From: a virus
Lineage: Duplodnaviria > Heunggongvirae > Uroviricota > Caudoviricetes
Length of the DNA: 64,000 bases
Strand: one strand, 5' to 3'
IMG/VR virus record: IMGVR_UViG_3300006143_000348
Shown here: positions 1 to 63,779 of the stretch, in pieces
Position numbering within the stretch: position 1 is the first letter of the stretch
How the letters are laid out: each line of letters begins with the position of its first letter
The notes under the pieces: model-generated
What the model was told of the DNA's origin: nothing
Seen by the model: the letters and a program-made list of their open reading frames with translations, nothing else
The model's database searches: none
Position numbers and translations under genes: made by a program

Positions 1-781
1 TGTTGTCCCTATGGATGCTGTCGTTTTTGTTTTGGATTGTCCGGGCGTGGTTCCCGTATGTCATGTATACGGTTGTTTCCTGGACACTGGCGTGCAGGGA
101 ACAGACAGCCTGCGCGAGTATCTCAGACACCTGCATGAGCTGGTCACACACCAATTCTTCCGATGCGACCCTTGCCCCGACATGGATGGAGCCGTGGATT
201 AAGTCTCCAAGAATAAGGATGTGCAGTTTTCTGCACGTATTCAGTTCAATGCGCTGTTTTGCCTTCTGGACAATATCCTGTACGCGCTGCTTGCACACTT
301 CTGTATTGTACGAGTTGAATATGTTGGACGTTACCATCCCATAATGCCAGTCACTGAACACAAGGATGGCCTCATTGTCTGAATATTCTATATATGCGCT
401 ATCAGGGGAGCTGAAATCCAGTGTCCCGATGCTGTCTGATAAGTTATTGGCGGCTACAGCCAGTGAGTCGTATAGGTGTTCGCGCCGCCCTTCCCGCGAC
501 ACCAGCTTGTTGTATTCGCGCCTCTGGTCGTAGAACTTCTGGCGTTCCCGTTGCAGTTCCTCGATTTTTGCGTCCATCTCAGACAGGATGCTGCTGTCCT
601 GGGAGCTGGTGCGCTCCATATCCATGAGTTCCAGGGTGCGCCTGCTGCCGTACATCATACGGCGTGCTACGTCACTGGAGTATGTCTGGCCGTAGACCAG
701 TTCAGAAAGTTCTGTGTAATCCATATCGGCGAGCGTGCGGTCGACCAGCTTGCCGTAAACGAGCCTCTTATGGTAATCCAT
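1..781 (-). CDS. Calcineurin-like metallophosphoesterase (partial; 3' end lies beyond window start)
   Basis: Minus-strand translation from the ATG at 781 gives MDYHKRLVYGKLVDR... with motifs 'ILVFSDWHYG', 'LILGDLIHG' and 'GNHA', as in the calcineurin-like phosphoesterase fold. A GGAGAG RBS lies 6 nt upstream. The frame stays open to the window edge. The plus-strand track ORFs 3..344 and 476..856 are W/C-rich and implausible. Confidence 0.6.
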   Translation of the reverse strand, partial: MDYHKRLVYGKLVDRTLADMDYTELSELVYGQTYSSDVARRMMYGSRRTLELMDMERTSSQDSSILSEMDAKIEELQRERQKFYDQRREYNKLVSREGRREHLYDSLAVAANNLSDSIGTLDFSSPDSAYIEYSDNEAILVFSDWHYGMVTSNIFNSYNTEVCKQRVQDIVQKAKQRIELNTCRKLHILILGDLIHGSIHVGARVASEELVCDQLMQVSEILAQAVCSLHASVQETTVYMTYGNHARTIQNKNDSIHRDN

Positions 782-815: not shown

Positions 816-980
816 TCAGGCACCTGCTTTCCGGCGTTTCAGCAGAAAGTCCATGACTGCTGGAGACTCTTCGCAATAGTAGCGGTGTCTTTTCGACCGC
901 TGGTTCATGGTTCGCCTTATATGCGTGCCTGGGCAGTTCTGAAGCAAAGCTTCTTTTTCGGACTTCGTGATTTTAATCAT
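816..980 (-). CDS. Small basic protein (54 aa), hypothetical
   Basis: Minus-strand ORF MIKITKSEKEALLQNCPGTHIRRTMNQRSKRHRYYCEE.... An AAGGAAG RBS lies 8 nt upstream of the ATG at 980. It lies between two co-oriented genes. Confidence 0.3.
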   Translation of the reverse strand: MIKITKSEKEALLQNCPGTHIRRTMNQRSKRHRYYCEESPAVMDFLLKRRKAGA

Positions 981-1082
981 GGTTGTCGCTTCCTTCCGTT
1001 ATTGGCTTATGTATTTTGGCAAATACGGATTTCGTTCCGTATATTTCCCTCCGTATTTTAAATCCATCATATCACCTGAAAA

Positions 1083-1898
1083 TCACTGTGTAACAGTTGA
1101 TTTATGTATATCTGAAAACTCAACGCTATGTACTTTTTTAGCAGAATTTCTTTTACGTAGTACCGAATTTATACGGTGTTGTAAGTCAATTTCTTCCGCA
1201 CATGCTTTACAATACTTCTGTTTCCGGCCTTTTTGTGGGTTGTTATATTTTACGGTGATGCCACAGTTTACGCATTCAAAGTATGGTTCCCCGACATATT
1301 TTAAATATTGGTATCCAAGATTTCGGAAATCAGTTATCTCAAGGGCAGTCTCACCTTCCTCTGCAAAGCATACCCGGACATTTGTGTTGTCAATGCGCTT
1401 GGAGAAACGAAGCACCCCTAGTTCTTTCAGCGCGCCGAACATAGCACACTGTCTTTTGATGGATGTGTTGATATTCGCCATAGCCATGATTTCATTATCC
1501 CTGTTCTTTACCCAATAATCGGTGACAGGGGATACGGCATACCAGTATTTGGCGAGGCACAGCAAAGTAAACGCCAACCTCCTGAGTTGCCTGCCGCCGA
1601 TGGAGTCGATTCTGTCCATTTCGGGCTTTGTTATGATGATGCTTTGGATATCTATGGCTCCGTACTTTAAAGCGCGTTTTAGGGCATTATCCAGCGTCTC
1701 AGACCATGTGGTTAATGACGCGGACGGGTCGCACTGGATGAGGAATATGTCTAGTCTCTTACGAACTTCTGTTTTGGAATATCCAGAATCAAGGTAATAC
1801 CTTGCGACGCGGTAGAGCGTCTGATATGGCTTTTTGCCGAGCGACCTGTCTTGAATCATCTTTTCAGCCCATTCGTTTTCTTTTAATATAATATTCAT
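1083..1898 (-). CDS. Hypothetical protein with C-terminal Zn-ribbon (CVNCG...CKAC); possible DNA-binding/replication accessory
   Basis: 271-aa ORF. Its stop overlaps the start of the upstream 914-aa gene (ATGA overlap at 1895-1898). C-terminal motif CxxC-x17-CxxC. Confidence 0.65.
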   Translation of the reverse strand: MNIILKENEWAEKMIQDRSLGKKPYQTLYRVARYYLDSGYSKTEVRKRLDIFLIQCDPSASLTTWSETLDNALKRALKYGAIDIQSIIITKPEMDRIDSIGGRQLRRLAFTLLCLAKYWYAVSPVTDYWVKNRDNEIMAMANINTSIKRQCAMFGALKELGVLRFSKRIDNTNVRVCFAEEGETALEITDFRNLGYQYLKYVGEPYFECVNCGITVKYNNPQKGRKQKYCKACAEEIDLQHRINSVLRKRNSAKKVHSVEFSDIHKSTVTQ

Positions 1899-4639
1899 TC
1901 GTCCACCTCAATTTCTTTTGATATCATTTTGAATTTGCTGCCGCGGTAACAGATGTCCCCACTATTGTCCCTCGTAGGGAATGACAGCGTATGGTTATTG
2001 TTTGCAAGTAAGTTATGGATAATTTCTGTGCCGCATATATTCCATGCGAAGTTTTTCGTGGCGCTTTTGGTATAACATAGGTCGAGTAGGATATCGCATA
2101 AGGAATATTTATTTTGACAGATAATATCACATTCTTTTCTAAAGTTATCGTTCATATCCAATAATTGTACGTGTGAAGCAAATTTATCCATGCGCCTGTA
2201 CTCTGCGGAAACAGAATACTCCTGCAGTTTTTTATTGTAATTTGTGTACAGCTTCTGGATTGCCTTATATTGGGCGGCGGTGTAAGAAGCCCCGCTCTTC
2301 ATAATTGTGTAGTCAAATTTAGATTCTGCATTATGTTTACCGACATATCCATCAAATTCCTGCTCGAATCTCCTGCAAATCCGGTTCATCACACAGTCGC
2401 TGGTGCCGACGGGCATCCGGTATTCATAGTATTGGAGGAAGTCGGCCTGACGTTCAGTCAGCTCTTCGGGCGGAATCTGCTGAAGCTCACTTACGGTCAT
2501 CTGGAACTCACGGAGGGCATTCTTGTCCGTGCTCTTAACGTATTGGCTGTACTGCTTCATCAGGGAAGGGTATATGTACCGCATAAAGTACGGCTTCTTG
2601 TCGGCTACGATACTCCTGCAGAATTCACGCTGAGCATCGTCCTCTATCTTGTTTACAGCGTGGAGGTCGTGCCATGTCTTTGGCATCGGCTTGCAGATGA
2701 TGCCCTTAGCCTTGTCGATGGCGTTCTGCTGGTAGAGCTGGCCGCAGCAGATGCGGTAGGAGAGGGTTTCGTATTCAAGGCTTCCTTTTTCGAACCTGGA
2801 GCGAACCTCGAACATGGAAGTAATCCAGTTCGTAGTCTGCCCGATGTCGTTCCCGAAGCTCCCGATATTCGACTCGATGAAATCTTGCTCCGTGGGGATT
2901 GATTTGGCCGCTTTCCGCTGGGCGCACATCAGGGAGGGGAGCTGCTGGAGCTTTTCAACCAATACGCGGTTGTCGGTAAGCATGACTAAGTCTCCGTCGA
3001 AATCCATGCCGTTTAACGCGGCTGTGGCGGTGTCCCATGCATTGAAGACGGTGCATGTCTTCAAATGTTTATACCAGTAGCGTATCTCCTCCGTATCGGC
3101 TGGATGCACGAGGCGGATGTTGTTGTGGCACGTCATGGGCGCACGGTAGCAGGCAAGCCTGTCGGCACCCTCGTCTGCCCAGTACTGGTTGTATATCTCC
3201 CCTGGCCTCAAAAGCCCGGTTACGTCTAGGCCGAACATGCTCTGGCATAACGCATAGGGGTCTCCAGATACGATGGAGTAGTTGCCGTGAACCTTCAAGA
3301 CGCCGACTTTGGCTTCCTTGATGCGGGTTTTAATGAGCCGGTAGATGCTGCTTTGGATGAACGGGTCTTCAATCATGCGCTGGTCGGCCATGATAGCCTT
3401 TATGTAGTCATCCTCCAGGCTATTGATATTGGACTCGTTCAGCCCCATGCCGCGCAGGAACAGGATGGTCTTGCGCCAGTCCCCGCCCAGGACGTCCCTG
3501 ATTTCGTCCATCGTGGGGGCAATCAGCTCCTCTATGTCATCGTCGTCCAGGTCATAACTCTGGATGAATTGGTAGTTCAGGGAGCGCTCGTTTTCCAATG
3601 CCTTCGGGCATGTCTTTGCAATCCCGAAGGTATAGCCGTTGCGCAGCGAGTTCTGTACGTAGTCCTCGCAGCTTTTGTAACTATCCCAGAGCTTGACCAT
3701 AGACGTGGTAAGAATCAGCTCCACATTGCGCACGTCGACCTCATCCCCCCAGGCATCGCGGATGGTGTAGTTCCCTCCAGCGACCTTATCGGCGAAATCC
3801 AGGAAATCAAAGGTGATGGCCATGCCCTTTTCGAAAGAGAAGCGGGTGTTGGCTCCGCTGACCACATAGCCAAGCCCCAGCTCCCGGCTCCAGCGCTCGG
3901 CAAGGGAGGGGAGCATGATACCGTAGCCGTCTGATGCGTCCATGTCAATTTTCTCGGATTTTCTGGGCTGCATCAGTGGCTCATCCTCGCATTCATCCGT
4001 CAGGTACACGATATCCGACAGGAAGCTGGTATTGCAGTCATCCACGACGGCGATGCCTTTCGGGAACGATACAGGGACGGAGGCGCTGCACGTAAGGGCT
4101 TGGTACGCTTCGAGCTTTGCCGTCACCATTTCCTTCTGCATGTCGCGCCCATTAGCTATGCGGCGCTTCAGTTCATCAGCAATGGCGCTGTTTACGAACA
4201 CGATGGTGCTGTTTTTGATGCCGCCATTTGTCCCAAGGAGCCTTTTGTAATGGATGCCGTTGATGGAAAAGCCCTTGCACGCCCTGTAGTAATCCTTCTT
4301 CCTGTCTATTATCAGGCAGACATAATCGGGCTTGTATTGCAGCCGGTCAAGCTCTGCGTACAGGGATTTCATCATCCGGCGGCTCTTAATGCTGTTCGCC
4401 TCGGCTCTGAGTTGGCGGATGTCAGATTTTATCTGGCGTGCTTTCGCGTCAGAATCAGGGGTTTCATTTATGGAGTCAATCCAGCGGAGCATCTGGCTGT
4501 CAGCCAGGGAGATTACTTCGTTGTTCCTGCGCGCTTCTTCGATTGGGAGGGTAAGTTTCCATTTTTCTTTGCGCAGGCGGCTGCTGTGCAGCTTATAAAT
4601 GTATTTTTGGCAGGTTAATTGCTTACTGATAAAAGTCAC
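1895..4639 (-). CDS. Large (914 aa) protein with 'GMDFDGDLVML' motif; candidate single-chain two-barrel RNA polymerase (YonO/QDE-1-like). Tentative.
   Basis: Long uninterrupted ORF in an operon with the ATPase and Zn-ribbon genes. The central motif GMDFDGD resembles the NADFDGD/DxDGD Mg-binding loop of beta' and of YonO/QDE-1 DPBB polymerases. No family A/B DNA-polymerase motifs were seen. Confidence 0.7.
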   Translation of the reverse strand: MTFISKQLTCQKYIYKLHSSRLRKEKWKLTLPIEEARRNNEVISLADSQMLRWIDSINETPDSDAKARQIKSDIRQLRAEANSIKSRRMMKSLYAELDRLQYKPDYVCLIIDRKKDYYRACKGFSINGIHYKRLLGTNGGIKNSTIVFVNSAIADELKRRIANGRDMQKEMVTAKLEAYQALTCSASVPVSFPKGIAVVDDCNTSFLSDIVYLTDECEDEPLMQPRKSEKIDMDASDGYGIMLPSLAERWSRELGLGYVVSGANTRFSFEKGMAITFDFLDFADKVAGGNYTIRDAWGDEVDVRNVELILTTSMVKLWDSYKSCEDYVQNSLRNGYTFGIAKTCPKALENERSLNYQFIQSYDLDDDDIEELIAPTMDEIRDVLGGDWRKTILFLRGMGLNESNINSLEDDYIKAIMADQRMIEDPFIQSSIYRLIKTRIKEAKVGVLKVHGNYSIVSGDPYALCQSMFGLDVTGLLRPGEIYNQYWADEGADRLACYRAPMTCHNNIRLVHPADTEEIRYWYKHLKTCTVFNAWDTATAALNGMDFDGDLVMLTDNRVLVEKLQQLPSLMCAQRKAAKSIPTEQDFIESNIGSFGNDIGQTTNWITSMFEVRSRFEKGSLEYETLSYRICCGQLYQQNAIDKAKGIICKPMPKTWHDLHAVNKIEDDAQREFCRSIVADKKPYFMRYIYPSLMKQYSQYVKSTDKNALREFQMTVSELQQIPPEELTERQADFLQYYEYRMPVGTSDCVMNRICRRFEQEFDGYVGKHNAESKFDYTIMKSGASYTAAQYKAIQKLYTNYNKKLQEYSVSAEYRRMDKFASHVQLLDMNDNFRKECDIICQNKYSLCDILLDLCYTKSATKNFAWNICGTEIIHNLLANNNHTLSFPTRDNSGDICYRGSKFKMISKEIEVDE

Positions 4640-4681
4640 CTCACTTAATGAATTATTTAATTAACATGATATAGTAAAAAT

Positions 4682-4858
4682 TAATCCTCGTACTGGGATA
4701 TGTATGGATGCCATTCCTCATAAAACTCCTGGCGGCGGCGTTCGATGAGCGCCTCTGGAGCTGAATCGTCCAGGCCGTTATTCAAGGGGGAATAGTACTG
4801 GCATGGCGTGTTTTCAGGGCAGCAGTTATTGTAGTAGCAGTTTGAACATTTAAGTTTC
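4682..4858 (-). CDS. Cys-rich micro-protein (58 aa), MKLKCSNCYYNNCCPENTPCQYY...
   Basis: Not in the ORF track (under 60 aa). RBS ggaggtatct precedes the ATG at 4858. The start overlaps the stop of the upstream ATPase gene by 9 nt. Five Cys sit in the first 20 residues, followed by an acidic/basic tail. Confidence 0.4.
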
Positions 4859-6103
4859 ATAGATACCTCCTTTGCTTACTTCATTTATCCAGTTGATAAG
4901 TAATGTCCTCATCCGGCGGCTTGGTATGTAGATGCTGATTTCCTTCCCATCCCGTATGGCAGAGCGCCAAATCCATTGAATCATGGTTGAGAGGGCATAT
5001 CGTTCCTGGTCTAATACCAGCCCCTTGTCATAGTAGTATGTTACAATCCCAGTGTTGGGGAATAAATTTACCGGATAAACAAGGGCTGTTTTCTCACGGT
5101 AGTCGTTTGTGGATTTTTTGTTAAAGGCAAGCTTGCTGTTCCAATATCCTTTATTGCGTATCTTTGACCAAGTTCCGGCTTCTGAGTAAGTGCCGCAAAG
5201 CCTCTGGGAAGCGCTTACATGCACTTTGTGCTTGAAATAATTGCTGATGCAGCAGCGCAATTCGTCTACTTTATCGGGGTTCTTCTCGTACCAGTTCATT
5301 GACAGGGCATTCCTGTTCTTCCCAATGGCGTTTAGCTTTTCATCGTCGAATATATGTATCTTTTCAGATAAGGAGTTTATATAAGCGGGCATATCTCCGG
5401 GTTTGTCTGTTAGGGCGTAGGAAGAGTCTCCGCGGCGCTCCACGCCGATATACTGGTATTTGATGCCACACATCTGGAAAAACAAGTCCATCTCTGAGCC
5501 TTTGAACAGATAAGTCAGCAGTATGACCTCATTGGCGCACTCAAGGAAGTCCTTTGGGTATATCCAATACCATAAGCTGGCATTGCCTTCGGAACTTCCG
5601 ATGTTTAGGAGCGGCCTGGTTTCCATGATGCGGAACATCTTGCGGAATACAGTCCCGGTGTATTCCTTGTCTGTTTTGGTATAACAGCCGTTTTTGGATT
5701 CCTGCAGATATCCAGCATCAATCAATAGTCTGATATCCCCGTCGGAGACGTCGGCTCCTTTTTCAAAGACTGTAATTTCCTCGTCTATGATGATGGTATA
5801 GTTTTTCTCGCGGAGCATATCCAGGGTATCCTGCGTGTAGTAAAGCACGGCCTGGTGTGTGCTCGCGATGTTGTGCCCGGCTTCTATTAGAGCCATTGTG
5901 TGCCTTGCCTTGCTGAATCCATATTCTTTAATTTTGCAGCTCGGCTCCATGAAATGGGCGCTAGGGCATGATTTGTTGATTCTTGCGGCTTCATCCAGAT
6001 AGGGTGTGATGTATAGGAACCTTTTTTCTGGATGGGCATTGATGTGTGAAATAACGGCGCTCGTCTTGCCGCCGCCCATGATAGTATCGCAAACTTTAAT
6101 CAT
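4850..6103 (-). CDS. P-loop NTPase (Walker A 'GGGKTS', Walker B 'IIIDEE'); putative helicase/replication-type ATPase
   Basis: 417-aa ORF, the first gene of the leftward operon. Starts MIKVCDTIMGGGKTSAV, with a DE-type Walker B motif. Confidence 0.75.
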   Translation of the reverse strand: MIKVCDTIMGGGKTSAVISHINAHPEKRFLYITPYLDEAARINKSCPSAHFMEPSCKIKEYGFSKARHTMALIEAGHNIASTHQAVLYYTQDTLDMLREKNYTIIIDEEITVFEKGADVSDGDIRLLIDAGYLQESKNGCYTKTDKEYTGTVFRKMFRIMETRPLLNIGSSEGNASLWYWIYPKDFLECANEVILLTYLFKGSEMDLFFQMCGIKYQYIGVERRGDSSYALTDKPGDMPAYINSLSEKIHIFDDEKLNAIGKNRNALSMNWYEKNPDKVDELRCCISNYFKHKVHVSASQRLCGTYSEAGTWSKIRNKGYWNSKLAFNKKSTNDYREKTALVYPVNLFPNTGIVTYYYDKGLVLDQERYALSTMIQWIWRSAIRDGKEISIYIPSRRMRTLLINWINEVSKGGIYET

Positions 6104-6966
6104 TTATATTGTCCTCCTGATATGGTGATTACTTGGTGGATAGTTACGGGTGGGTACAGATGGATACGGAGGGGAATTACGGGCGTAGCCCAGTGCAGTT
6201 CCTTCTATATTAGATGTCAAAAAGTAGTTTGGCACGACCTAGGTTCCAAGAGGTATTTCGCAGACCGGCGAAAACGCCTGTGGGGCAACGTGTTTTTGGA
6301 TATTTTCGGAGTGCGGTCTTTTTAAAGAAACAATCTTAAATATATATTTATAGAGCATACATTGTTTTCACGTCGTTTTCCATGCTATGTTGTTTCCCTC
6401 CTTTTCGTGTTCTTTGTTTCAATCATTCGTTCGGTCACAGAGCTGTTGTTTTCTAAAAGGACTCGCACCTTTAAAGCAACGTCGTATTCCTGACAGGCTC
6501 GGACACACTATCCGAACTCATTCCCCTACTTGAATTACCTGGACAAACATCTTATTTAGTTAGCAAGATAATCCAAAAAGAAAAGATGTAAAACACCTTA
6601 TTTTATTATCTTTATTATATCATGGGAAAACATGTATGTCAACGCAATAAATATCCAGGAATGAGATTAAAATACAGGTAATTCACTGCTGGGTAAAGCA
6701 ACGTTGATTACCGTTGTTTTTGTATTGGATAAATATTTAATTAATTGAGTATAAATTATTGGAGAATCAGTAATTATCGTGAAAATAGAAAGAGAATAAT
6801 GGACGGGGTTGAATAAAGTTAGTATGTGGGAGATGGAGTGACCATAAACAAATGTTCGGAATACGCGTTCGATAATACCATAACTATGGGGCGTTCTATG
6901 TTAAATAGTGTGAAAAGTGAACATAGGGTTCTGGAATAGTAATCATGATAGTGTCTGAAAACTCAC

Positions 6967-6980: not shown

Positions 6981-7001
6981 AACTTTTTTAAAAAAAGTAC
7001 T

Positions 7002-7030
7002 TGACATACAGTTGATATAGTGCTATCATA
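7002..7030 (+). promoter_or_regulatory. Sigma-70-like promoter TTGACA-N17-TATCAT
   Basis: TTGACAtacagttgatatagtgcTATCAT, about 150 nt upstream of the regulator gene. Confidence 0.35.
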
Positions 7031-7175
7031 GGACTTGTCAAACACAAGGACAGGCAAACATAACCAATACAGACACAATCAATCATTAAACCCGGTCCAG
7101 TGTTGACACACACAACAATATGACATGTCCGTACTGCAATATGGACGCAACTAAGAAAAAATGGAGGACAGTAAC

Positions 7176-8147
7176 ATGAAAAACAAAGAAATGAGAGAAG
7201 CAAGGACAGCAACTACAAACAACGCCTTTACAGAAACCCTTAGACGTTTCGAATCCACCTATCGCTTGAACAAAGATTCTAAAGCATACGCCGAAGCACT
7301 GAATAGCTTAGCAACCGCAGTAGCCTATAGCGTACTGAAAAAGTGTATCGACGTTTCCCAGAACCCACAACTGAAAGAAGTCAGAGCTAGCATTGCAAGG
7401 GACACGGCACGATTAGAAGCTATTAGGTACAGCGGTGCACATGCGTTCGAGACAGTGTTCACTAGTGACGGGGACATGGCACGCAAGACAGTTGATTCCA
7501 GTATGAGGGACGCACAAGACAAGTTAGCAAGTGAGTGCTTAGGTGACGGACTCGACCTTGTAAATACGGCTATCATCTCCATCCTGGGAGAGACAGCGAA
7601 AGCAATCGAGCGTGGCGAACTGGACAGCGACTTTTTGGAGAAACCCTACACCGTGCGGCGGCTTAAGAAAAAGGTTTGGATTAAGTCAGAGGACAGCGTC
7701 GGGGGCTGGGAAACGGCAGAGACAACGCCTATACAGGAGGTGTATAAGGAAGTTCGCCGGGCGATTGACGCAAGCCGGGCGATGAGCACGGACGCAAGAA
7801 ACGGTTACTCTTACTTGGAAGAGTTATCCTATGACGCTGAGTCGGACGCAGAGTCAGTCATCTATCGTAGGCTGTCCAAGTATGCAGACTTAGGCGGATA
7901 CGCTACAGATTTCAATGGAGCGTGCACACTGTACAGCGCAGACAGCCAGACAGCGGATGACATGGACACACTCATTGAACTTTTGGAGTTGACAGCAAGA
8001 CAAGCGCAGGTGCTCAAGTTAAGGCTGGCAGGGCATGGCTACAAGTCAGTAGCTACCTATCTAGGTGTTGATGTTCGGGCAGTAAAGGACGTATTAAAGA
8101 ACATCCAGCAAAAAGCACTAAAGGCAGGACTCAAACCAAGATTCTAA
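7176..8147 (+). CDS. Sigma-70 region-4-like HTH regulator (possible phage sigma factor)
   Basis: C-terminal 'LTARQAQVLKLRLAGHGYKSVATYLGVDVRAVKDVLKNIQQK' is a sigma region 4 / LuxR-type HTH. The start at ATG 7176 is preferred over 7161, because GGAGG at 7163-7167 is followed by the ATG after 8 nt. Confidence 0.7.
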   Translation: MKNKEMREARTATTNNAFTETLRRFESTYRLNKDSKAYAEALNSLATAVAYSVLKKCIDVSQNPQLKEVRASIARDTARLEAIRYSGAHAFETVFTSDGDMARKTVDSSMRDAQDKLASECLGDGLDLVNTAIISILGETAKAIERGELDSDFLEKPYTVRRLKKKVWIKSEDSVGGWETAETTPIQEVYKEVRRAIDASRAMSTDARNGYSYLEELSYDAESDAESVIYRRLSKYADLGGYATDFNGACTLYSADSQTADDMDTLIELLELTARQAQVLKLRLAGHGYKSVATYLGVDVRAVKDVLKNIQQKALKAGLKPRF

Positions 8148-8221: not shown

Positions 8222-9430
8222 CTTTACGGCAGAGAGTGGATGTAAGGCGGGCTGGATGAGAGAGGATGAGAAAAAGGATAGCAAACATATGTTTACCCCC
8301 CTTTTTGCGGTAGAGTGTGGGAGCAGTAGCCCGCTGAAGCCCGCACGTCCTGTCAGACGCCATAAAACGCCCGTATACGCCGCTGGACAGCGTAGGCTAT
8401 GGATAGTAGCCCTCACATGGAAAGAATGCAATGCGGGCTGGATAAGCCGTCTACAGGGGCAGAGTTGTACCTTTGCGGTAGAGAGTGAGGGCAAGCCAAA
8501 CGCCCCCGCCAGAACGAGCTGGGAAACCGGGACGCGAACGACTGTTCAGGGTAGCCACTTTACGGTAGAGAGTGAGGGCAAACCAAACGCCCTCGCCAGA
8601 ACGAGCTGGGAAGCCGGGACACGAACGGTTGTTTACTCCCCCCTTTGCGGTAGAGAGTGAGGGCAAACCAAACGCCCCCGCCAGCACGAACTGGGAAGCC
8701 GGGACACGAACGGTTGTTTACTCCCCCCCTTTGCGGTAGAGAGTGAGGGAAACCGAGCGACTCCCGCCAGCACGAACTGGGAAGCCGGAACACGAACGGT
8801 TGTTTACTCCCCCCTTTGCGGTAGAGAGTGAGGGAAACCGAGCGACTCCCGCCAGCACGAACTGGGAAGCCGGGACACGAACGGTTGTTTACTCCCCCCT
8901 TTGCGGTAGAGAGTGAGGGCAAACCAAACGCCCCGCCAGCACGAACTGGGAAGCCGGGACACGAACGGTTGTTTACTCCCCCCTTTGCGGTAGAGAGTGA
9001 GGGAAACCGAGCGACTCCCGCCAGCACGAGCTGGGAAGCCGGGGGACGAACGGTTGTTCCGGTTGTACCTTTGCGGTAGAGAGTGAGGGCAAGCCAAACG
9101 CCCCCGCCAGCACGAACTGGGAAGCCGGGATACGAACAGTTGTTTGCCTGCCCCTTTGCGGTAGAGAGTGAGGGCGAACCAAACGCCCCCGCCAGTGCGA
9201 GCTGGGAAGCCGGGGGAACACGAACGGATGTTCAGGGTCACTACTTTGCGGTAGAGAGTGAGGGCAAGCCAAACGCCCCCGCCAGAGTGAACCGGGAAGC
9301 TGGGGGACACAAACGGTTGTTTGCCCCCCCTTTGCGGTAGAGAGTGAGGGCAAGCCAAACGCCCCCCGCCAGCACGAGCTGGGAAGCCGGGGGAACGAAC
9401 GGTTGTTTACTCCCCCCTTTACGGTACAAG
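8222..9430. repeat. Tandem array of about 14 units of about 86 bp. Unit consensus: CTTTGCGGTAGAGAGTGAGGGCAAACCAAACGCCCCCGCCAGCACGAACTGGGAAGCCGGGACACGAACGGTTGTTTACTCCCCC
   Basis: The unit starts (GCGGTAGAGAGTG) recur at about 8226, 8307, 8475, 8562, 8647, 8733, 8818, 8903, 8987, 9073, 9158, 9248, 9334 and 9421. Spacing is 84-90 bp. The first two or three units are degenerate. Each unit contains the hairpin GGGC-AAACCAAAC-GCCC. Confidence 0.9.
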
Positions 9431-9936
9431 GTGGAAGCCCTTAAACCGACTCGATAGCGGTTTTAAAAGATACTATCGCTCTGAGTAATCAGTGCACGAG
9501 CGGTTATCCGCCTGTGAGAGTACATCTGCTACCAGATGCGTCGCTGGGTGCGTAGGAAGTAAGCCTATGGTTCGGATAGTGAAAACCCCCAGAGTTACAC
9601 CCAATTAGATGTGAAAAGAGGTCGCATCTGCCTGAATGCGTCACCATGAGGGACTTCACCTTGAAAATCTTCGAGGGCGTCCAACGCAACGATATCAGTG
9701 CCCGAGGGCACATCGGCTATGTTCCGAGGAATTAAATGCCGGATTGTTTCTGGACGTCTGAAAAGACAGAGTAAAGGGAAGACAATAGAATATTGAGACA
9801 GCCGCCCTCCGGGGCGGTTGATGAGCATATATAGAGCATCCGAGACTTTAGTTATGAATCTGGCTACGCGGCATCGTTTCGGGTGTTCTGTTATGGGCTT
9901 ATCCATAAAAATAAATAGCCGAAAGGAGAAAACGAT

Positions 9937-11744: not shown

Positions 11745-12018
11745 GCAAACAGATGTTTGAAATGGTTTTTGAGAAAAAAAGTACAGCCGAGTTGCAGCTC
11801 GACTGTACGGGTATTACTATTTAGTCGGAAACCATTCCGACTCACATCAAGAAATAGAGGCTGCATAAAACAACAACCACAATTTTTTTGGTGAACAAGC
11901 ACAATCAAACTTGTTCGTATCTAGTATGCCACGAAATGCACAGAAAGTCAACAGGGAAATTGTAATTTTTTGATTTGTGAATTTGAACGAAGAAAGTCCA
12001 CTGTAAGGTGGGCTTTTT
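11745..12018 (+). ncRNA. Candidate structured RNA / long leader (copy A) ending in a rho-independent terminator (GTCCAC-tgtaag-GTGGGC then T5 at 11996-12018)
   Basis: Promoter plus about 270 nt plus terminator. Hairpins: GTACAGCCGAG-ttgcag-CTCGACTGTAC, AGTCGGAA-acca-TTCCGACT, GAACAAG-N10-CTTGTTC. Contains only a 15-codon ORF (MPRNAQKVNREIVIF). The same architecture recurs at 21836-22102 and, in part, upstream of the 44455 gene. Confidence 0.35.
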
Positions 12019-12268
12019 AGTATATATGTATAAAAATGGAGGGAGGGACAGTAAGAAATACGGGGTTTGTCCGTTTTTCGGACGAACCCCAAATGGAGTC
12101 ACGAATCATGACGCCATATCAAGATAAAAAATCGAGATGTGAGAATTTTCACGAGTTAAACCAAGAGGGTGAAATCTGCCCGCTTGGTTTAGAAATGTCG
12201 TAGGGTAAAACGCGGAAAAGGGTATTTGACTGGGAACTAACGAAAATAATTTAGGAGGGAAAGCGGAT

Positions 12269-12911: not shown

Positions 12912-13628
12912 ATGAAAGAGGTATTCACAGTGGAAAATGTAGCATTAATTCAGGGGACGGAATTACAGGTCAAAGAGTATCAGGGGAACAGGGTTGTGAC
13001 GTTCAAGGATGTTGACAGGGTACATCAGAGGCCGGACGGGACAGCAAGAAGGCGGTTCAACGATAATAGGAGGCGATTTCTTGAGGGGACGGATTTCTTT
13101 AAAATAACGCCGTCCGAATTTCGGACAGCGATTGGGGATATGGACTTGCGGCAGCAGAATAACGTAACCCTTCTTACCGAAAGCGGCTATCTCATGTTAG
13201 TAAAGTCTTTTACTGACGACTTAGCCTGGAAAGTCCAGAGGGATTTGGTGAACACATACTTCAAGATGAAAGAAGTAGTGGAATCCGCTACCCCGGAAGA
13301 AACAGGGATGGTTCTTACGCAAGAGGGTTTTGCAGATGCAGTCCATGCACTGACCGGGTGTGCAAGCATATTCCAGTCGATGCTCGACTACTCCACAATC
13401 AACTATAAGCAACAGCAGGAACTTTTGCAGGCGGCAAGGCGGCGGGTCAGCCAGCTTCTTGGCGGGGCGCATTCAGACAGGTACAAACAGTCGTCCAGAA
13501 CATACTTCAGGAATCTCTGGCAGGATTTCTGCGAGTACTTCTCTTGCGGCTCGTACCGGGATTTAAACCCGCAGTACATGGTAGATGACGCTGCGGCAAG
13601 GTGGATTTCAGAGTGGTCATATGGCTGA
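12912..13628 (+). CDS. ORF6N(KilA-N-like)-ORF6C antirepressor-like protein
   Basis: 'VTFKDVDRVHQRPDGTARRRFNDNRRRFLEGTDFF' is an ORF6N-type N-terminus. C-terminus 'NYKQQQELLQAARRRVSQLLGGAHSDRY...YRDLNPQYMVDDAAARWISEW'. The track ORF starts at 12885. ATG 12912 matches the start of the near-identical copy-B gene at 23100. GTG 12930 is an alternative start. Confidence 0.8.
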   Translation: MKEVFTVENVALIQGTELQVKEYQGNRVVTFKDVDRVHQRPDGTARRRFNDNRRRFLEGTDFFKITPSEFRTAIGDMDLRQQNNVTLLTESGYLMLVKSFTDDLAWKVQRDLVNTYFKMKEVVESATPEETGMVLTQEGFADAVHALTGCASIFQSMLDYSTINYKQQQELLQAARRRVSQLLGGAHSDRYKQSSRTYFRNLWQDFCEYFSCGSYRDLNPQYMVDDAAARWISEWSYG

Positions 13629-13902
13629 TAATGCAAGGGCTGGGCGCTTAGATATCCAGGGAGATAACAGGAGGGTTTTTGTGGGCAGAAGAGAATATGC
13701 AAAACGCAGCAAGCGGGGTAAACGCCTCAGGATGTTAAAGCAGCGGCTTGTGGCGATAGAAATATTGCTTATATGCGTGCTTATCACTGTGTGGGAGTTC
13801 GAGGGCAACAACGGAATCCCCTGCGACATGTGCGGGATTATCTTCATCGCGGTGCTTGCTTTGTACTTGCTTTTTACGAAGGAGTGCTGGGTTTACGACT
13901 GA
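13621..13902 (+). CDS. Small membrane protein (two predicted TM helices), basic N-terminus
   Basis: Two hydrophobic stretches are evident by eye: 'LVAIEILLICVLITVW' and 'IIFIAVLALYLLF'. The start is uncertain. ATG 13621 overlaps the upstream stop (ATGGCTGA). GTG 13681 has an AGGAGGG RBS. The protein is about 98% identical to 23812..24093. Confidence 0.5.
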   Translation: MADNARAGRLDIQGDNRRVFVGRREYAKRSKRGKRLRMLKQRLVAIEILLICVLITVWEFEGNNGIPCDMCGIIFIAVLALYLLFTKECWVYD

Positions 13903-16424: not shown

Positions 16425-16861
16425 CTAGCAGGCAATGCTAAATAGTCCCATGTGAGAGTAATTTCACATGCAAATCTATCGAATTGCTGGGAACCCCTAA
16501 AGCTCGCAATACCACAACGTAAGAATGAAAGAAATCTAAGCGTGACGGTAACGAAAGTAGAAAGAAATTGCGAGATGGCGCAAGGTTAAATCCTAAACGC
16601 TTTTGCAATGGGCAATCAGCAGCGAAGCTCCGAACAGGAGAACGTTCAACGACTATCCCGTAAGGGAGTAGGGCGCAAGCGGTCGGTGTCCGAAGTGGTA
16701 GACACCCTGAGAAAAAGGGCGATGATATAGTCTGTACTGTAGGGAAACTTACAGAAATCTCTTTGGAGGCAGCATGGAACAGCGAGCCATGCTGAACATA
16801 ATAGAATGCATAGGAGCTTGTAGCACAGTGGCAAGCGGGTTAGGCAACTAGCCCGCTTGTT

Positions 16862-23099: not shown

Positions 23100-23819
23100 A
23101 TGAAAGAGGTATTCACAGTGGAAAATGTAGCATTAATTCAGGGGACGGAATTACAGATTAAAGAGTATCAGGGGAACAGGGTTGTGACGTTTAAGGATGT
23201 TGACAGAGTTCACCAGAGGCCGGATGGGACGGCAAGAAGGCGGTTCAACGATAATAGGAGGCGATTTCTTGAGGGGACTGATTACTTTAAAGTTTGTGCG
23301 TCCGAAATTCGGACGCACAACATTATGGACATATCAAGCAAAGCACATGAAGATATGACCCTCCTTACTGAAAGCGGCTATCTCATGTTAGTAAAGTCTT
23401 TTACTGACGACTTAGCTTGGAAAGTCCAGAGGGATTTGGTGAACACATACTTCAAGATGAAAGAAGTAGTAGAATCCGCCACCCCGGAGGAAACAGGAAT
23501 GGTTCTCACGCAAGAGGGTTTTGCAGATGCAGTCCATGCACTGACTGGGTGTGCAAGCATATTCCAGTCGATGCTCGACTACTCCACAATCAACTATAAG
23601 CAACAGCAGGAACTTTTACAGGCGGCAAGGCGGCGGGTAAGCCACCTTCTCGGCGGGGCACATTCGGACAGGTACAGGCAGTCGTCCAGGATATACTTCA
23701 GGAATCTCTGGCAGGATTTCTGCGAGTACTTCTCTTGCGGCTCCTACCGGGATTTAAACCCGCAGTATATGGTAGATGACGCTGCGGCAAGGTGGATTTC
23801 GGAGTGGTCATATGGCTGA
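23100..23819 (+). CDS. ORF6N(KilA-N-like)-ORF6C antirepressor-like protein (copy B of 12912..13628)
   Basis: Near-identical to copy A except for a divergent segment ('FKVCASEIRTHNIMDISSKAHEDMT' vs 'FKITPSEFRTAIGDMDLRQQNNVT'). Confidence 0.85.
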   Translation: MKEVFTVENVALIQGTELQIKEYQGNRVVTFKDVDRVHQRPDGTARRRFNDNRRRFLEGTDYFKVCASEIRTHNIMDISSKAHEDMTLLTESGYLMLVKSFTDDLAWKVQRDLVNTYFKMKEVVESATPEETGMVLTQEGFADAVHALTGCASIFQSMLDYSTINYKQQQELLQAARRRVSHLLGGAHSDRYRQSSRIYFRNLWQDFCEYFSCGSYRDLNPQYMVDDAAARWISEWSYG

Positions 23820-24093
23820 TAATGCAAGGGCTGGGTGCTTAGATATCCAGGGAGATAACAGGAGGGTTTTTGTGGGCAGAAGAGAATATGCAAAACGCAG
23901 CAAGCGGGGTAAACGCCTCAGGATGTTAAAGCAGCGGCTTGTGGCGATAGAAATATTGCTTATATGCGTGCTTATCACTGTGTGGGAGTTCGAGGGCAAC
24001 AACGGAATCCCCTGCGACATGTGCGGGACTATCCTCATCGCGGTGCTTGCTTTGTACTTGCTTTTTACGAAGGAGTGCTGGGTTTATGACTGA
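23812..24093 (+). CDS. Small membrane protein (copy B of 13621..13902)
   Basis: Same two hydrophobic helices. The start overlaps the upstream stop. GTG 23872 is an alternative start. Confidence 0.5.
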   Translation: MADNARAGCLDIQGDNRRVFVGRREYAKRSKRGKRLRMLKQRLVAIEILLICVLITVWEFEGNNGIPCDMCGTILIAVLALYLLFTKECWVYD

Positions 24094-26080: not shown

Positions 26081-27220
26081 ATGTTCTATATTACAGTTAA
26101 GCAGTCGCCAATGTATCATCAAATGACATTGGAAGAGTTTCTGTTTAATACAGAAGTTAAAAGTACATGTATTAATCCAAATATGACCAATACACGTACA
26201 TACGAAATAGCGGAAATCAGTGAAAGGTTTTTAGGGACGGTAGATGTAAGGAAATTGATAGCAAAGCTTGTCCAGTTCAATGATTCCGTCGCAGAATTAA
26301 AGAGCGCTCCAAGACATGAGCTTTACCATACGTTCCATATCCCGAAGAAGAGCGGAGGGTTAAGGAAGATTGACGCCCCGAATGCAGAATTAATGGATGC
26401 GCTGAGACGGCTGAAAACCATTTTCGAGGAAGATTTCAAAGCCTTGTACCATACGTCCGCATTCGCATATGTGAAACACCGCAGCACCTTAGATGCTGTG
26501 AAGAGACACCAGGCGAATGCAAGCAGGTGGTTTGGGAAATACGACCTTTCCAATTTCTTCGGGAGCACGACTCTGGAATATGTAATGCATATGCTCGGGA
26601 TGGTTTTCCCATTTTCGGAGGTACTGAAGCAGGGGATTGGGAGAAGCGCATTAAGCGATGCACTGGAGCTTGCATTCCTTGATGGGGCTTTGCCGCAGGG
26701 GACGCCATTATCCCCGCTGCTTACTAACATCATAATGATTCCGGTGGATTTCAAGCTGGCAAACACATTAAGGGAATATAATCATCAGCGGTTTGTTTAT
26801 ACAAGGTACGCTGATGATTTTTTAGTTTCATCCAGATACCAGTTCAGCTTCCGGGAGATTGAGGCACTGATAATATCGACGCTCGCTGATTTTGGCGCGC
26901 CGTTTACCATTAATCCAGGGAAGACCCGGTATGGGTCATCCGCGGGTTCAAACTGGAACCTTGGAGTGATGCTGAACAAAGACAATCAGATTACCGTGGG
27001 ATACAAAAAGAAACGGCAGTTCCAGGCGATGCTGGCATCGTATGTCATGGACAGGAGGAATGGGACGCCCTGGGATAAGACGGACATCCGGGTAATGGAA
27101 GGATACAGGAACTACTATAGGATGATTGAGAAAGAAACCATTGACGCTATGGTAAAACATGTTGGCGATAAATTTGGCGTTGATATCGTGGCGTTAATTA
27201 AGACAGATTTGAAAATCTGA
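26081..27220 (+). CDS. Reverse transcriptase (retron/Abi/DRT-type, 379 aa)
   Basis: RT motifs: 'IPKKSGGLRKI' (motifs 1/2), 'FGKYDLSNFFGS' (A), 'LPQGTPLSPLLTNI' (B), 'YTRYADDFLV' (C, YADD). No maturase or endonuclease domain. AAAGGAAGG RBS. Confidence 0.9.
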   Translation: MFYITVKQSPMYHQMTLEEFLFNTEVKSTCINPNMTNTRTYEIAEISERFLGTVDVRKLIAKLVQFNDSVAELKSAPRHELYHTFHIPKKSGGLRKIDAPNAELMDALRRLKTIFEEDFKALYHTSAFAYVKHRSTLDAVKRHQANASRWFGKYDLSNFFGSTTLEYVMHMLGMVFPFSEVLKQGIGRSALSDALELAFLDGALPQGTPLSPLLTNIIMIPVDFKLANTLREYNHQRFVYTRYADDFLVSSRYQFSFREIEALIISTLADFGAPFTINPGKTRYGSSAGSNWNLGVMLNKDNQITVGYKKKRQFQAMLASYVMDRRNGTPWDKTDIRVMEGYRNYYRMIEKETIDAMVKHVGDKFGVDIVALIKTDLKI

Positions 27221-29509: not shown

Positions 29510-31250
29510 GGTGATATGTCAAGAACTTTTTGAAAAAGATTTTGATATGTTTTTCAGAAAAAAGGGTAACTTTAACAGACCTTCGGTATATTTTACGAAA
29601 AACCGAAGGTCAGTTCGACTCGATATTATATTCGGTGTCCAGCTTTTCGCCGGTGTACAGTTGGTTTTTGACCAGCAATCCAAAAACGAGTCGTACAAAT
29701 TTACGAGATGTAAGCGCGAGTGCTCTTTTGTGCTGATGTCTGGTTACCTCAGCATATTTTCTGGCATAAAAATCAGCATATTGAGGGATGTGCTTCCTGA
29801 CGCTGTTTGCCGCTTCGCCAAGATAGTAGCGAAGATAGGGATTTCCGGCTTTCGACATGTTGTTGTCCTCAGAAGTGAAATCTCCGGAATCACCTTTAGG
29901 CCAGTAAAGCCCGGCATATTTGGCAAGGGCATCGGACGAATGAAATGCTGTTATATCGCCTATTTCTGACAGGATCCCGGATGCCCATACTGGACCTATT
30001 CCAGGTATGGACCTGAGGATGATCAGGGCATTAGGGTTCATTCCGTTGATGCATTTCCCAATCGCCTGCTCTATCAGCCTGATTTCTTTCTGATAGGCAT
30101 GGATGCAGTTAAACGAGCTTGCCAGTGATATGTTCAGTGGTTCGTACATGCACTTGTCTAACCGGTAGGAATCCCTGGCTGCCTTCCGCAGAAGTTCGGA
30201 AGTTTTGGATATGTCAGAGATGCGGTTCCTGCTCTTTTCCGCAAGAAAAGCAAGCAGATCCTCTTCCGGCATATCAATGATCTCCTGTGGTGACAGAAAT
30301 TCTGTCAGGACAGCTGAGGACGTGGCGCCATAGAGACTGCCAAAAGGCTTATCATCACCTTCAAGGAGCTGAAGCTCACTAAACTTCAGATAAAGATTAG
30401 ACACCATATAAGTCTTCTCCCTGGTGATGCACTCAGAAAGGTGCATACGGTGCCTTGTAAGGCGTTTCAGGGCTATGAACTGCCCGCCGTGCCATGGCTC
30501 CAGTTTTTTCGTGCGGCCTACCCTGCCAAAGTCTGCAATGAGATATGCATCTGTGGGATCAGTCTTCTCCATTCCGATATAGGACTTTCGGTAATTGGAA
30601 GTGGTCTTTGGGTTTACACAGAAGACGTAAGGTCTGTAGGGCATGAGAACCTCACTGGTCGACAGGAAGTTGGAAATATGCACGCTGTACACAGAAGTGG
30701 ATTCCAACACGATAAGAAGGGTATCCAGGTTTTGATGCTTCTGCATACACTCCGCAATCATATCCACAAGCTGATCGGCACCCGGCTGATTATTGCCAAA
30801 CGATGATGAGATGTATTTGTTTTCCTCAAAGTCCATCGCATAGACAGCATTGGTCTTTGAGCTTACATCAATACCTACAAACAAGGTGGACATATAGTTG
30901 ATCTTTAACATGATATCACCTCCGTTCTGATCGGGATTTGTGAAGCCTGAAGCAAAAGGGTTATCCTGTGCTGCATACGGTGACCGAAACCTCGCGCAAT
31001 GAGCATGCACCCAGTCAGCCTTTCTTGCTGGGGCTAACGGCTGGGGATGAAAATTCTGTGTCAGCGGAATATGCCGTATGTGCCAGGCTGAATGCTATCG
31101 AAGCAGTCTCGGACTAAGCCGGCTGAAAGGAGGAACAGCAGTGCCTTCGGACATCAGACTCTGCCTGATATCATACCACAGGATAAACAATTATGAAACT
31201 GGGTTGTACAGGTGATGAAAGGGTGGGAGGGGAATCCTCCTGATTGCCTT
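29510..31250 (-). mobile_element. IS110-family insertion sequence (approximate boundaries)
   Basis: Contains the IS110-type transposase gene plus about 300 nt of non-coding left end and about 90 nt of right end. It sits between the AAA+ gene stop (29503) and the SPFH operon. IS110 elements lack terminal inverted repeats, so the ends are estimated. Confidence 0.5.
29610..30911 (-). CDS. IS110-family transposase (DEDD-type N-terminus + IS110 C-terminal domain)
   Basis: 'MSTLFVGIDVSSKTNAVYAM' at the N-terminus. C-terminal 'IPGIGPVWASGILSEIGDITAFHSSDALAKYAGLYWPKGDSGDF' is the IS110/IS116/IS902 signature. The start is set at MLKINYMSTLF (ATG 30911, GGAGGTGA RBS) rather than the track's upstream extension. 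Confidence 0.85.
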   Translation of the reverse strand: MLKINYMSTLFVGIDVSSKTNAVYAMDFEENKYISSSFGNNQPGADQLVDMIAECMQKHQNLDTLLIVLESTSVYSVHISNFLSTSEVLMPYRPYVFCVNPKTTSNYRKSYIGMEKTDPTDAYLIADFGRVGRTKKLEPWHGGQFIALKRLTRHRMHLSECITREKTYMVSNLYLKFSELQLLEGDDKPFGSLYGATSSAVLTEFLSPQEIIDMPEEDLLAFLAEKSRNRISDISKTSELLRKAARDSYRLDKCMYEPLNISLASSFNCIHAYQKEIRLIEQAIGKCINGMNPNALIILRSIPGIGPVWASGILSEIGDITAFHSSDALAKYAGLYWPKGDSGDFTSEDNNMSKAGNPYLRYYLGEAANSVRKHIPQYADFYARKYAEVTRHQHKRALALTSRKFVRLVFGLLVKNQLYTGEKLDTEYNIESN

Positions 31251-61917: not shown

Positions 61918-62410
61918 CAAGCATGGCTGTAAAATGAATTGAATCACTTTTCGGACGAACTTTAGGACTATTTCAGGATTTCGCTTCATAAGTTAGAGAA
62001 ACGCAAAGGGGCAGTAAAAGGGAGGTGGCCGCTATTTCTAAAAAGAAAAAGTTGAATTATCGTTTTCATAATCCAAATACGCCAGAAGTCACGGCTGATT
62101 ACATAATCAAGGTACTGATGGAGGCGAATAAAAAGAAGCTTGAACAGGCCTTGAAAGAAGAGGTATTGAAGTGCGCCTGTAATGAATAAATGAAAAGATA
62201 GGAAGCCGCTGCAGGAGTGTAGCGGCTTTCGGTGTAATATGCGTTTCTGAAGGAATAGAAAAGAAGACAAAGATATTAAGTTTTATGAATGTTGTGTTAG
62301 TAATATAAAAACCAGAAGCCTGTTGATTTACTATCATCTTAGTGATATTATAATATTATGGAAAAGATTTTATAGCTTTAAAATGTTGCTTTTAGATGAA
62401 GGGGGTTAAA

Positions 62411-63742: not shown

Positions 63743-63779
63743 ATTAGTAAAGTGTTGTTTTTTTATAATGGGGAATGAG

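Follow-up and report, generated by a model that had tools for sequence, protein, structure and literature searches.

The question raised by this stretch of viral DNA is whether a large bacteriophage encodes its own RNA polymerase (RNAP) and, if so, which genes this enzyme would transcribe and with which helpers. The window analysed here is a 64,000-nucleotide (nt) stretch of the IMG/VR virus record IMGVR_UViG_3300006143_000348 (Caudoviricetes), the minus strand of which carries four tightly packed open reading frames (ORFs) of 417, 59, 914 and 271 amino acids (aa) at positions 1083-6103. All four had been described by a model that saw only the letters of this DNA, and all were recovered on that strand at their predicted positions. 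The original prediction had tentatively taken the 914-aa protein, on the strength of a single motif, for a two-barrel polymerase of the YonO/QDE-1 type. The motif, NGMDFDGDLVMLTDN, is real, with GMDFDGD at aa 544-550, and a Pfam match, similarity to YonO, eight catalytic residues and the predicted fold now support the guess. The 914-aa protein almost certainly belongs to the YonO/QDE-1 branch of two-barrel RNAPs, and it is an orthologue-level relative of YonO of Bacillus phage SPbeta. Its carrier is an SPbeta-like phage or prophage, roughly 100-120 kb, of gut Clostridia.

The 914-aa protein matched PF05183 (RdRP in Pfam) over aa 120-572 (E = 1.5e-16; 60.7 bits, gathering score 23.8), and it also matched phrog_25339, phrog_8308 and phrog_35857. 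A tblastn search of phage genomes returned 40 records, with identities of 40% for Clostridium phage c-st, 38% for six Enterocloster phages and 31% for Bacillus phage BUCT082. The SPbeta group (SPbeta, phi3T and Goe12) matched at 25.5% identity over aa 122-610 (E about 1e-17 to 1e-21), and some of these matches carry the annotation yonO, DNA-directed RNA polymerase. By blastp, YonO of Goe12 matched aa 122-610 at 25.7% identity (E = 3.8e-26), and in a multiple alignment the co-linearity of the 914-aa protein with YonO extends as far as the C-terminal helical domain; K862, W866 and G870 are invariant.

Ruprich-Robert and Thuriaux defined eight residues that are invariant in all two-barrel polymerases, namely D709, R738, K743, R962, P964, D1007, D1009 and D1011 of QDE-1, equivalent to D837, K979 and K987 of Rpb2 and to R446, P448, D479, D481 and D483 of Rpb1 (PMC2919709). 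The 914-aa protein has all eight (D237, R266, K271, R499, P501, D546, D548 and D550), and each is invariant across a 146-sequence alignment of the family. When the profile of these 146 members was aligned to QDE-1 with HMMER, D237-R266-K271 aligned gap-free with identical 29- and 5-residue spacings, and the Asp triad aligned as well. This alignment does not include the segment of R499 and P501, the correspondence of which was taken from the RxP motif, its invariance and its spacing (47 residues from R499 to the first triad Asp, compared with 45 in QDE-1). The invariance of D546, D548 and D550, together with more than 4,000 homologues, places the GMDFDGD match far beyond chance. In YonO, the equivalent three Asp were changed to Asn as a test of the catalytic site (PMC5467207).

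An AlphaFold model of the 914-aa protein built on the 146-member alignment had a mean predicted local distance difference test score (pLDDT) of 87.6 and a predicted template modelling score (pTM) of 0.83. In a Foldseek comparison of this model with the PDB, the top 21 chains were all QDE-1 or plant RDR2 (E 2.5e-17 to 2e-13; probability 1.00), aligned over the whole length with template modelling (TM) scores of 0.38-0.53 and 775-975 aligned columns; these were the only significant matches. The next matches, with E of approximately 1, include Rpb1, bacterial beta' and poxvirus RNAP chains. By this overall structural match, the 914-aa protein is predicted to have the fold with a pair of double-psi beta-barrels seen in QDE-1. 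The comparison gave no confident match to another family and no helicase or primase fold was found, and the YonO/QDE-1 interpretation is thus supported. Single-sequence searches of the sequences of solved structures with the polymerase and with YonO found nothing meaningful, indicating that no YonO structure is available in the PDB.

The same matches raise the possibility that the enzyme is an RNA-dependent RNA polymerase copying phage or host RNA, for example for antisense or double-stranded RNA, which we consider improbable. The Pfam family is named for such enzymes, all significant structural matches are eukaryotic RNA-dependent polymerases, and PMBT24, TR-TP1, Perkons and many Bacillaceae homologues are annotated as 'RNA-dependent RNA polymerase'. 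However, these annotations were carried over from the Pfam name, and, to judge by the titles of entries 7y7r, 7y7s and 7y7t, crystals of QDE-1 have been obtained with templates of DNA and not only of RNA. Furthermore, the carrier is a double-stranded DNA phage with the gene at the yonO position, at the head of the late cluster, and YonO, the only characterised bacterial or phage member, is DNA-dependent and needed for late mRNA (PMC5467207).

The surroundings of the gene bear on what a DNA-dependent enzyme would transcribe. The gene order of the window and its extended relatives is that of the SPbeta yon cluster (yonV...yonP-yonO-yonN-yonK-yonJ...yonG-yonF). The first gene after the polymerase operon, at the yonK position, encodes a 54-aa protein for which no family match was found. 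It is followed by a YonJ-like metallophosphoesterase gene, the start of which, judged from sequence, marks the beginning of the late/structural arm and which runs off the left end of the window. The orthologue of this gene in the related public contig L007 encodes 392 aa with a Metallophos match, and L007 shows what lies beyond the window edge: the small ORF and the YonJ-like gene are followed by HU, YonG_N/YonG_C, the large terminase TerL and YonD_N. By analogy with YonO, a processive DNA-dependent RNAP that, as work of 2017 showed, transcribes the SPbeta late operon (Forrest et al., 2017; PMC5467207), the 914-aa polymerase probably carries out DNA-dependent transcription of the late genes.

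The plus strand at 7161-64000 forms the early/replication arm of a large SPbeta-like phage and encodes DnaB, a Pol III alpha-type polymerase, NrdD, antirepressor-type proteins, a reverse transcriptase, AAA ATPases and an IS110 transposase. With DnaB, Pol III alpha and NrdD encoded in this adjacent arm and an ATPase that is probably superfamily 2 (SF2)-helicase-like in its own operon, the two-barrel enzyme might instead have been recruited for another nucleotide polymerisation, such as priming DNA replication together with that ATPase. This reading appears very improbable, because the close relative PMBT24 has a separate DNA primase as well as DnaB, the linkage of polymerase and ATPase is not conserved, and the synteny is with late genes, as for yonO.

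We therefore return to late-gene transcription and propose a scenario that, taken as a whole, we judge likely. Host sigma-A RNAP would transcribe the four-gene operon, in the order ATPase, micro-protein, polymerase and partner, from a promoter at 6642-6614. The phage polymerase, acting through the D546/D548/D550 triad together with D237, R266 and K271, would then transcribe the packaging, structural and lysis genes lying directly downstream. The boundary between operon and late genes would be marked, in most relatives, by a terminator-like hairpin and a non-sigma-A element; in the window the hairpin is absent and the element weak. The translationally coupled 271-aa protein would be the DNA-binding or promoter-specificity partner of the polymerase, and the ATPase and micro-protein possible auxiliary factors.

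For the first step, the putative sigma-A promoter of the window matches the consensus at 12 of 12 positions and lies approximately 510 nt upstream of the ATPase start. Of 70 distinct relatives, 24 have a promoter scoring 11-12/12 upstream of the ATPase gene, at a distance of 128-540 nt (mostly about 285-450 nt), and this score was reached in none of the 134 coding windows used as controls. By its consensus match, the promoter of the window most likely serves host RNAP for transcription of the operon. For the second step, most relatives have, downstream of the partner gene, a hairpin with a conserved TTG...CAA, covarying outer pairs and a T-run, and then an element of consensus TTGATGrGrTGC..TATGAAGGGAATATA, which lies upstream of the first, small ORF of the late arm. 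An nhmmer profile of this element found one site per locus, at the same position, in approximately 58 loci (E 2.5e-7 to about 8, with approximately half below 0.01) and almost nothing elsewhere in about 1.1 Mb; it found no match in the c-st, PMBT24, BUCT082, Goe12 and TR-TP1 loci. In SPbeta, late transcription by YonO starts from a promoter upstream of yonK (PMC5467207), and by analogy this conserved non-sigma-A element is a candidate late promoter.

Only the short core TATGARGG of the element is shared with SPbeta. The published primers for primer extension of P_YonO bracket a 193-nt SPbeta interval with one TATGARGG inside (GTCATTTATGAGGGTG), and a second SPbeta copy lies 157 nt upstream of the first. 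The chance of one such core in the 193-nt interval is approximately 0.006, a figure for a comparison made after both sequences had been seen. In the SPbeta record SPBc2 (NC_001884; L104), the spacer between yonN and yonK holds two (T)CATTTATGARGGT copies, at 1736-1743 and 1893-1900, the latter reading TATGAGGG and corresponding to about 60434-60441 of NC_001884. The (T)CATTTATGARGGT sequence within the primer interval is a possible core of the YonO promoter.

The 271-aa protein may be an initiation, DNA-binding or promoter-recognition partner of the polymerase, a candidacy that we put forward tentatively. The polymerase TGA and the ATG of the 271-aa gene overlap as ATGA, with GAGGTG preceding that ATG. 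The AlphaFold model of the protein (pLDDT 89.6) predicts a helical domain at aa 7-78 and a winged helix at about aa 87-190, then a Cys4 Zn ribbon and, at the C-terminus, a long helix of basic character; the ribbon cysteines, C209, C212, C230 and C233 (nt 1200-1274), are invariant. The gene lies directly 3' of the polymerase gene in 79 of 79 close relatives. Furthermore, a profile built from the window's clade only (database size set to 1e6) matched proteins encoded directly after the polymerase gene in c-st (E = 2e-29), BUCT082 (1e-17), Paenibacillus (1e-11), Halobacillus (5e-11), and PMBT24 and CB457P1 (1e-10), and partner homologues thus follow the polymerase gene in a further six lineages of phages or prophages from Bacilli and Clostridia. 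TR-TP1 gp4, which lacks the ribbon, is a probable homologue (E = 3.6e-4). The family comprises 1,292 representatives at 50% clustering, almost all of them stand-alone proteins of 240-300 aa. A BFVD fold search with the 271-aa protein returned only uncharacterised proteins of the same family, the automatic names of which are unreliable. When the protein was examined for sigma regions 2 and 4, neither was found, and the sigma-70 family was rejected as its identity. The structural comparison drawn here is with TFE/TFIIE-alpha and RPC62, winged-helix initiation factors of multisubunit RNAPs, of which TFE also has a Zn ribbon.

Among the longer members of the partner family are proteins of 373-387 aa (P0250, P0273, P0280, P0306, P0350 and others), several of which carry GIY-YIG (PF01541), and two, P0502 and P0482, with a Bro-N/antirepressor-type N-terminus, as judged by eye. 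These look like homing-endonuclease and regulator fusions and not like polymerase fusions.

The C-terminus of YonO provides a further connection between the two families. It is a Zn ribbon that matches the partner-family motif SN[KR]xK[YF]CxxC, present in the partner proteins of BUCT082 (KIKSNKTKYCSSC), Paenibacillus (HITSNRKKYCVDC) and Halobacillus (RVTSNRTKFCTDC), and in pairwise BLAST the YonO C-terminus and the BUCT082 partner are 33% identical over 66 aa. This suggests, at the level of sequence, a deletion-fusion in the SPbeta lineage, which we regard as a lead and not as a result. The annotation of c-st implies that the C-terminal part of YonO is homologous to the whole partner protein; when this was tested, the Zn-ribbon stretch alone aligned with the partner, and the remainder aligned with the polymerase's own C-terminal helical domain. 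A broader hypothesis, which we hold to be rather unlikely, is that most YonO-family polymerases are two-component enzymes, in which the catalytic chain would be guided to a family-specific late promoter with a core like TATGARGG by an initiation factor of its own, the winged-helix/Zn-ribbon 271-aa protein, as a functional counterpart of sigma, TFB or TFE. On this hypothesis the YonO of SPbeta would be derived, having lost the winged-helix part and retained the Zn ribbon as a C-terminal fusion, and the micro-protein and the YonV-like ATPase might be further transcription accessories.

The ATPase, with Walker A MGGGKTS at aa 9-15 (nt 6059-6079), Walker B IIIDEE at aa 104-109 (nt 5777-5794) and a motif-VI-like QWIWRSAIRDG near its C-terminus, is by sequence a member of the YonV family, with homology that includes the C-terminal domain. 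It is 34% identical over 416 aa, its full length, to the 405-aa Goe12_c00610 (E = 2e-68), which is encoded 2 kb upstream of yonO and annotated only as hypothetical, and which we take to be yonV. A protein in L007 that is 100% identical to the ATPase has a precomputed match to PF27199 (YonV_C), and the ATPase also matches phrog_2467. The accessory genes, which had been called undescribed, are therefore so only in part, as the ATPase is a YonV homologue and the gene order mirrors the yon cluster of SPbeta. Motifs invariant in the ATPase family are GxGK[ST], ITPYLDE, DE, TH and QxIWRSxIRDG. Pfam DEAD matched 4 of 12 family members, all below threshold (best E = 4.5e-4), and ResIII matched one; the DEAD matches point to an ATPase that is probably SF2-helicase-like. 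Searches of the sequences of solved structures with ATPase profiles gave no match. Of 65 close relatives, 64 have the ATPase gene upstream of that for the polymerase.

The micro-protein gene overlaps the ATPase ORF by 11 nt and ends 41 nt before the polymerase gene. Its product counts 59 aa and not 58 as originally predicted, and it had not been missed by ORF callers, since it is called as a gene in the public contigs L007 and L008-L010. The protein has an N-terminal CxxC-x4-C-x5/6-C cluster and an acidic/aromatic C-terminal helix (..IERRRQEFYEEWHPYISQYED). Most relatives have an ORF of similar size in the spacer between ATPase and polymerase genes (approximately 60 of 66 distinct sequences, at 53-79 aa, a count that includes a few low-complexity or unrelated sequences). 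What is conserved is the helix at the C-terminus, with the pattern [DE]x[YF]IExxRxEFxxEWxxY; several lineages lack the Cys cluster, and richness in Cys is thus not the hallmark that it had been taken for. The micro-protein matched no Pfam, PHROG or PADLOC family. In the contigs L086 and L087, a 177-aa sigma-70 family gene stands in place of the micro-protein gene between ATPase and polymerase genes, with Sigma70_r2 (35.7 bits) and Sigma70_r4 (29.6 bits) both above their cut-offs. NCBIfam and PADLOC searches gave zero matches for all four operon proteins, and a defence-system reading of the operon is without support.

Several points weigh against the proposed scenario. Sequence does not reveal whether the preferred template is DNA or RNA, and among solved structures the closest are those of RNA-dependent enzymes. 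The window's own late element is weak (11.7 bits; E = 0.23), its clade has no hairpin upstream of it, and the TATGARGG link between the late element and SPbeta is post hoc. The YonO C-terminus scored just 11.6 bits against the partner profile (E = 5.8; database 1e6), and the YonO ribbon could instead correspond to the Cys-less beta-hairpin at aa 884-909 with which the 914-aa protein closes. A separate partner gene is missing from SPbeta, and no polymerase-partner fusion was found among the 150 best of the 1,292 partner representatives. YonO elongates alone in vitro, in elongation complexes that are stable and processive without other proteins, so that a partner is not required for catalysis (PMC5467207). 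The ATPase gene is not in an operon with the polymerase gene in SPbeta-like, PMBT24, Paenibacillus and Halobacillus loci: the Goe12 homologue lies on the opposite strand to yonO, 2 kb away, and the PMBT24, Paenibacillus and Halobacillus loci have no ATPase gene upstream of the polymerase gene.

The points on partner and ATPase are equally those expected if the polymerase acts alone and its neighbours are only syntenic. The 271-aa protein would then be an independent winged-helix DNA-binder, serving as a late regulator acting on host RNAP, a replication initiator or a packaging-site binder, the ATPase would act in replication, recombination or packaging, and the micro-protein would be unrelated. 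The ATPase gene lies outside the operon in four lineages besides Goe12, and one partner homologue is fused, as judged by eye, to a Bro-N/antirepressor-type N-terminus and not to a polymerase. We take this possibility seriously, though we do not think it the likely one. The partner gene stays directly after the polymerase gene in all of the 79 close relatives and in lineages at about 30-40% polymerase identity, while the surroundings change; the two genes overlap not only in the window but also in two Bacilli prophages; and the C-terminal Zn ribbon of YonO carries the SNKxKYC motif of the partner family. These observations count against a purely syntenic association.

The polymerase family is known and large, and the assignment itself adds no new kind of biology. 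Iyer et al. (2003) drew attention to YonO-like proteins in prophages of Firmicutes, a survey of them followed in 2010, and homologues in Bacillaceae and Paenibacillus are already named 'RNA dependent RNA polymerase' at NCBI and in UniRef; the genome paper on PMBT24 does not discuss the polymerase. Of the more than 4,000 metagenomic homologues found at E<=1e-5, the 120 closest are 70-98% identical to the 914-aa protein, and most of these 120 have a precomputed PF05183 match. At least 560 IMG/VR contigs, up to about 125 kb in length, encode a relative, as do 13 species-representative metagenome-assembled genomes (MAGs), mostly of Clostridia (Ruminococcus, Oscillospiraceae, Acutalibacteraceae, Tyzzerella and Eubacteriales). 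The original prediction had placed the gene in a prophage, which cannot be read from the window itself; its relatives lie partly within MAG contigs of 265-359 kb, which suggests integrated prophages, and partly on viral contigs of 60-125 kb. A megablast search of a phage collection with the operon gave no match at the nucleotide level.

The features of the locus are collected in Table 1.

Table 1. Features of the polymerase locus, by position in the window
Feature	Position	Strand	Equivalence or basis
YonO-family two-barrel RNA polymerase, 914 aa, GTG start	1895..4639	-	ORF list and homology
First (beta-like) barrel catalytic segment, D237-G238...R266...K271-G272	3824..3931	-	QDE-1 D709, R738, K743
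Second (beta'-like) barrel, R499-A-P501	3137..3145	-	QDE-1 R962/P964, Rpb1 R446/P448
GMDFDGD metal-binding Asp triad, D546/D548/D550	2990..3010	-	QDE-1 DYDGD 1007-1011, beta' NADFDGD loop
Proposed partner, predicted winged-helix/Zn-ribbon protein, 271 aa	1083..1898	-	ORF list and predicted structure
YonV-like P-loop ATPase, 417 aa	4850..6103	-	ORF list and homology
Micro-protein, 59 aa	4681..4860	-	ORF list
Putative sigma-A (sigma-70) promoter, TTGACA-17-TATAAT with TG extension	6614..6642	-	12/12 consensus scan
Candidate late element, weak copy, between partner gene and first late-arm ORF	1035..1071	-	nhmmer profile, 11.7 bits, E 0.23
54-aa ORF, first gene after the polymerase operon, yonK position	816..980	-	same gene called in L007
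YonJ-like metallophosphoesterase gene, 5' part, runs off left window end	1..781	-	260 open codons from ATG 781

Other features of the window lie in its early arm. Divergent from the polymerase operon, a gene at 7161-8147 (+) encodes a 328-aa protein with a C-terminal helix-turn-helix that gave a sub-threshold Sigma70_r4_2/GerE match (23.2 bits; cut-off 25.7); it is preceded by a sigma-A-like promoter (11/12) at 7001-7029 (+), and L007-L010 have a gene for 321-326 aa at the same position. Downstream of it, an 85-bp unit is repeated in approximately 11 tandem copies (85% matches) at 8470-9426 (+), and approximately 100 nt after this array lies a RAGATH-16 RNA match at 9523-9594 (+; 75.1 bits, gathering score 65.6). 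A RAGATH-18 RNA (64.3 bits) occurs in phage c-st (L002) at 11965-12025, just upstream of HU and downstream of the polymerase cluster, so that RAGATH-class RNAs are found near the polymerase module in two distant phages. Further into the early arm are a group I catalytic intron (RF00028) at 16430-16754 (+; 82.5 bits, E = 1.8e-19) and a direct repeat of approximately 700 bp at about 13190-13890 and 23380-24080 (+), which is 92-100% identical with a 192-bp exact block and duplicates a 105-aa ORF with a hydrophobic C-terminus (13585-13902 and 23776-24093). The reverse transcriptase (379 aa; 26081-27220, +) matched RVT_1 at 63.8 bits and phrog_2825. The transposase of the IS110 family (DEDD_Tnp_IS110 and Transposase_20) at 29610-31010 (-) lies on the opposite strand to its neighbours and is probably an insertion sequence inside the phage. 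The GC content falls to 28.5% in 62001-64000, compared with about 45% elsewhere in the window, and a 448-aa ORF in this region (62396-63742) had no PHROG or Pfam match.

Among known systems, the best structural matches are the eukaryotic RNA-dependent polymerases QDE-1 (2J7N) and plant RDR2 (7W82 and 7ROZ), which belong to the same Pfam family and have co-linear catalytic segments. They share approximately 13% sequence identity with the 914-aa protein, differ from it in accessory domains and partners, and copy RNA (QDE-1 also single-stranded DNA) in silencing pathways. The virion RNAP of crAss-like phages and the multisubunit RNAPs of AR9/phiKZ-like phages use the same catalytic principle of double-psi beta-barrels and are likewise phage-encoded and host-independent, but their architecture and subunit composition differ from those of the 914-aa polymerase, and neither gave a significant sequence or Foldseek match to it.

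The closer homologues, all uncharacterised, are CST179/178(/177) of c-st, those of the Enterocloster phages PMBT24 and CB457P1-CB473P3, and that of Bacillus phage BUCT082. In these phages of about 90-185 kb, the polymerase is 31-44% identical to that of the window over its full length, and the pair of polymerase and partner genes is followed by an HU-type gene; PMBT24 has no upstream ATPase. In c-st and the CB phages the polymerase is annotated as two to three ORFs, whereas the gene of the window is uninterrupted. Group I intron matches below the Rfam gathering score were found in one of the gaps of c-st or CB457P1 each (for CB457P1, which has two gaps, in the second), which argues against a true subunit split; the 'split' homologues of c-st and the CB457/CB473 phages are thus probably intron-containing genes. 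Intron-like insertions were seen in the polymerase genes of relatives at L101 4638-4916, L103 4901-5204, L005 2755-3053 and L002 7662-7958, with Rfam scores of 25-47 bits (gathering 50; E 2e-10 to 2e-4), one of them at the DFDGD triad (about codon 546) and a second near codon 634.

The nearest characterised system is YonO itself, the only characterised bacterial-virus member of the two-barrel branch that also holds the eukaryotic silencing polymerases, and one that discussions have treated as a model of how cellular RNAPs looked in their ancestral single-chain form. The catalytic cores of YonO and the 914-aa protein are homologous and share all eight catalytic residues, and the two genes occupy equivalent genomic positions: each comes after a small ORF, close to a yonV-type ATPase gene and ahead of the HU, yonK-position and yonJ genes with which the late cluster begins. 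The two proteins differ in length (839 aa compared with 914 aa, at approximately 25% identity) and in their ends, YonO closing in a Cys4 Zn ribbon and the 914-aa protein in a Cys-less beta-hairpin. In the window, moreover, a separate coupled 271-aa gene follows the polymerase gene, while SPbeta lacks one, and the ATPase gene lies in the polymerase operon, while in SPbeta-like phages its placement is divergent. Gut Clostridia, and not Bacillus, are the hosts here. The YonO-type enzyme is widespread in large phages of gut Clostridia, in hundreds of IMG/VR contigs and thousands of protein clusters. These loci offer two leads on initiation, a winged-helix/Zn-ribbon protein that is constantly co-encoded and a conserved element that heads the late genes. 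How YonO finds its promoter was left open in 2017, and the constant gene for a proposed DNA-binding partner may help to explain promoter finding by polymerases of this type.

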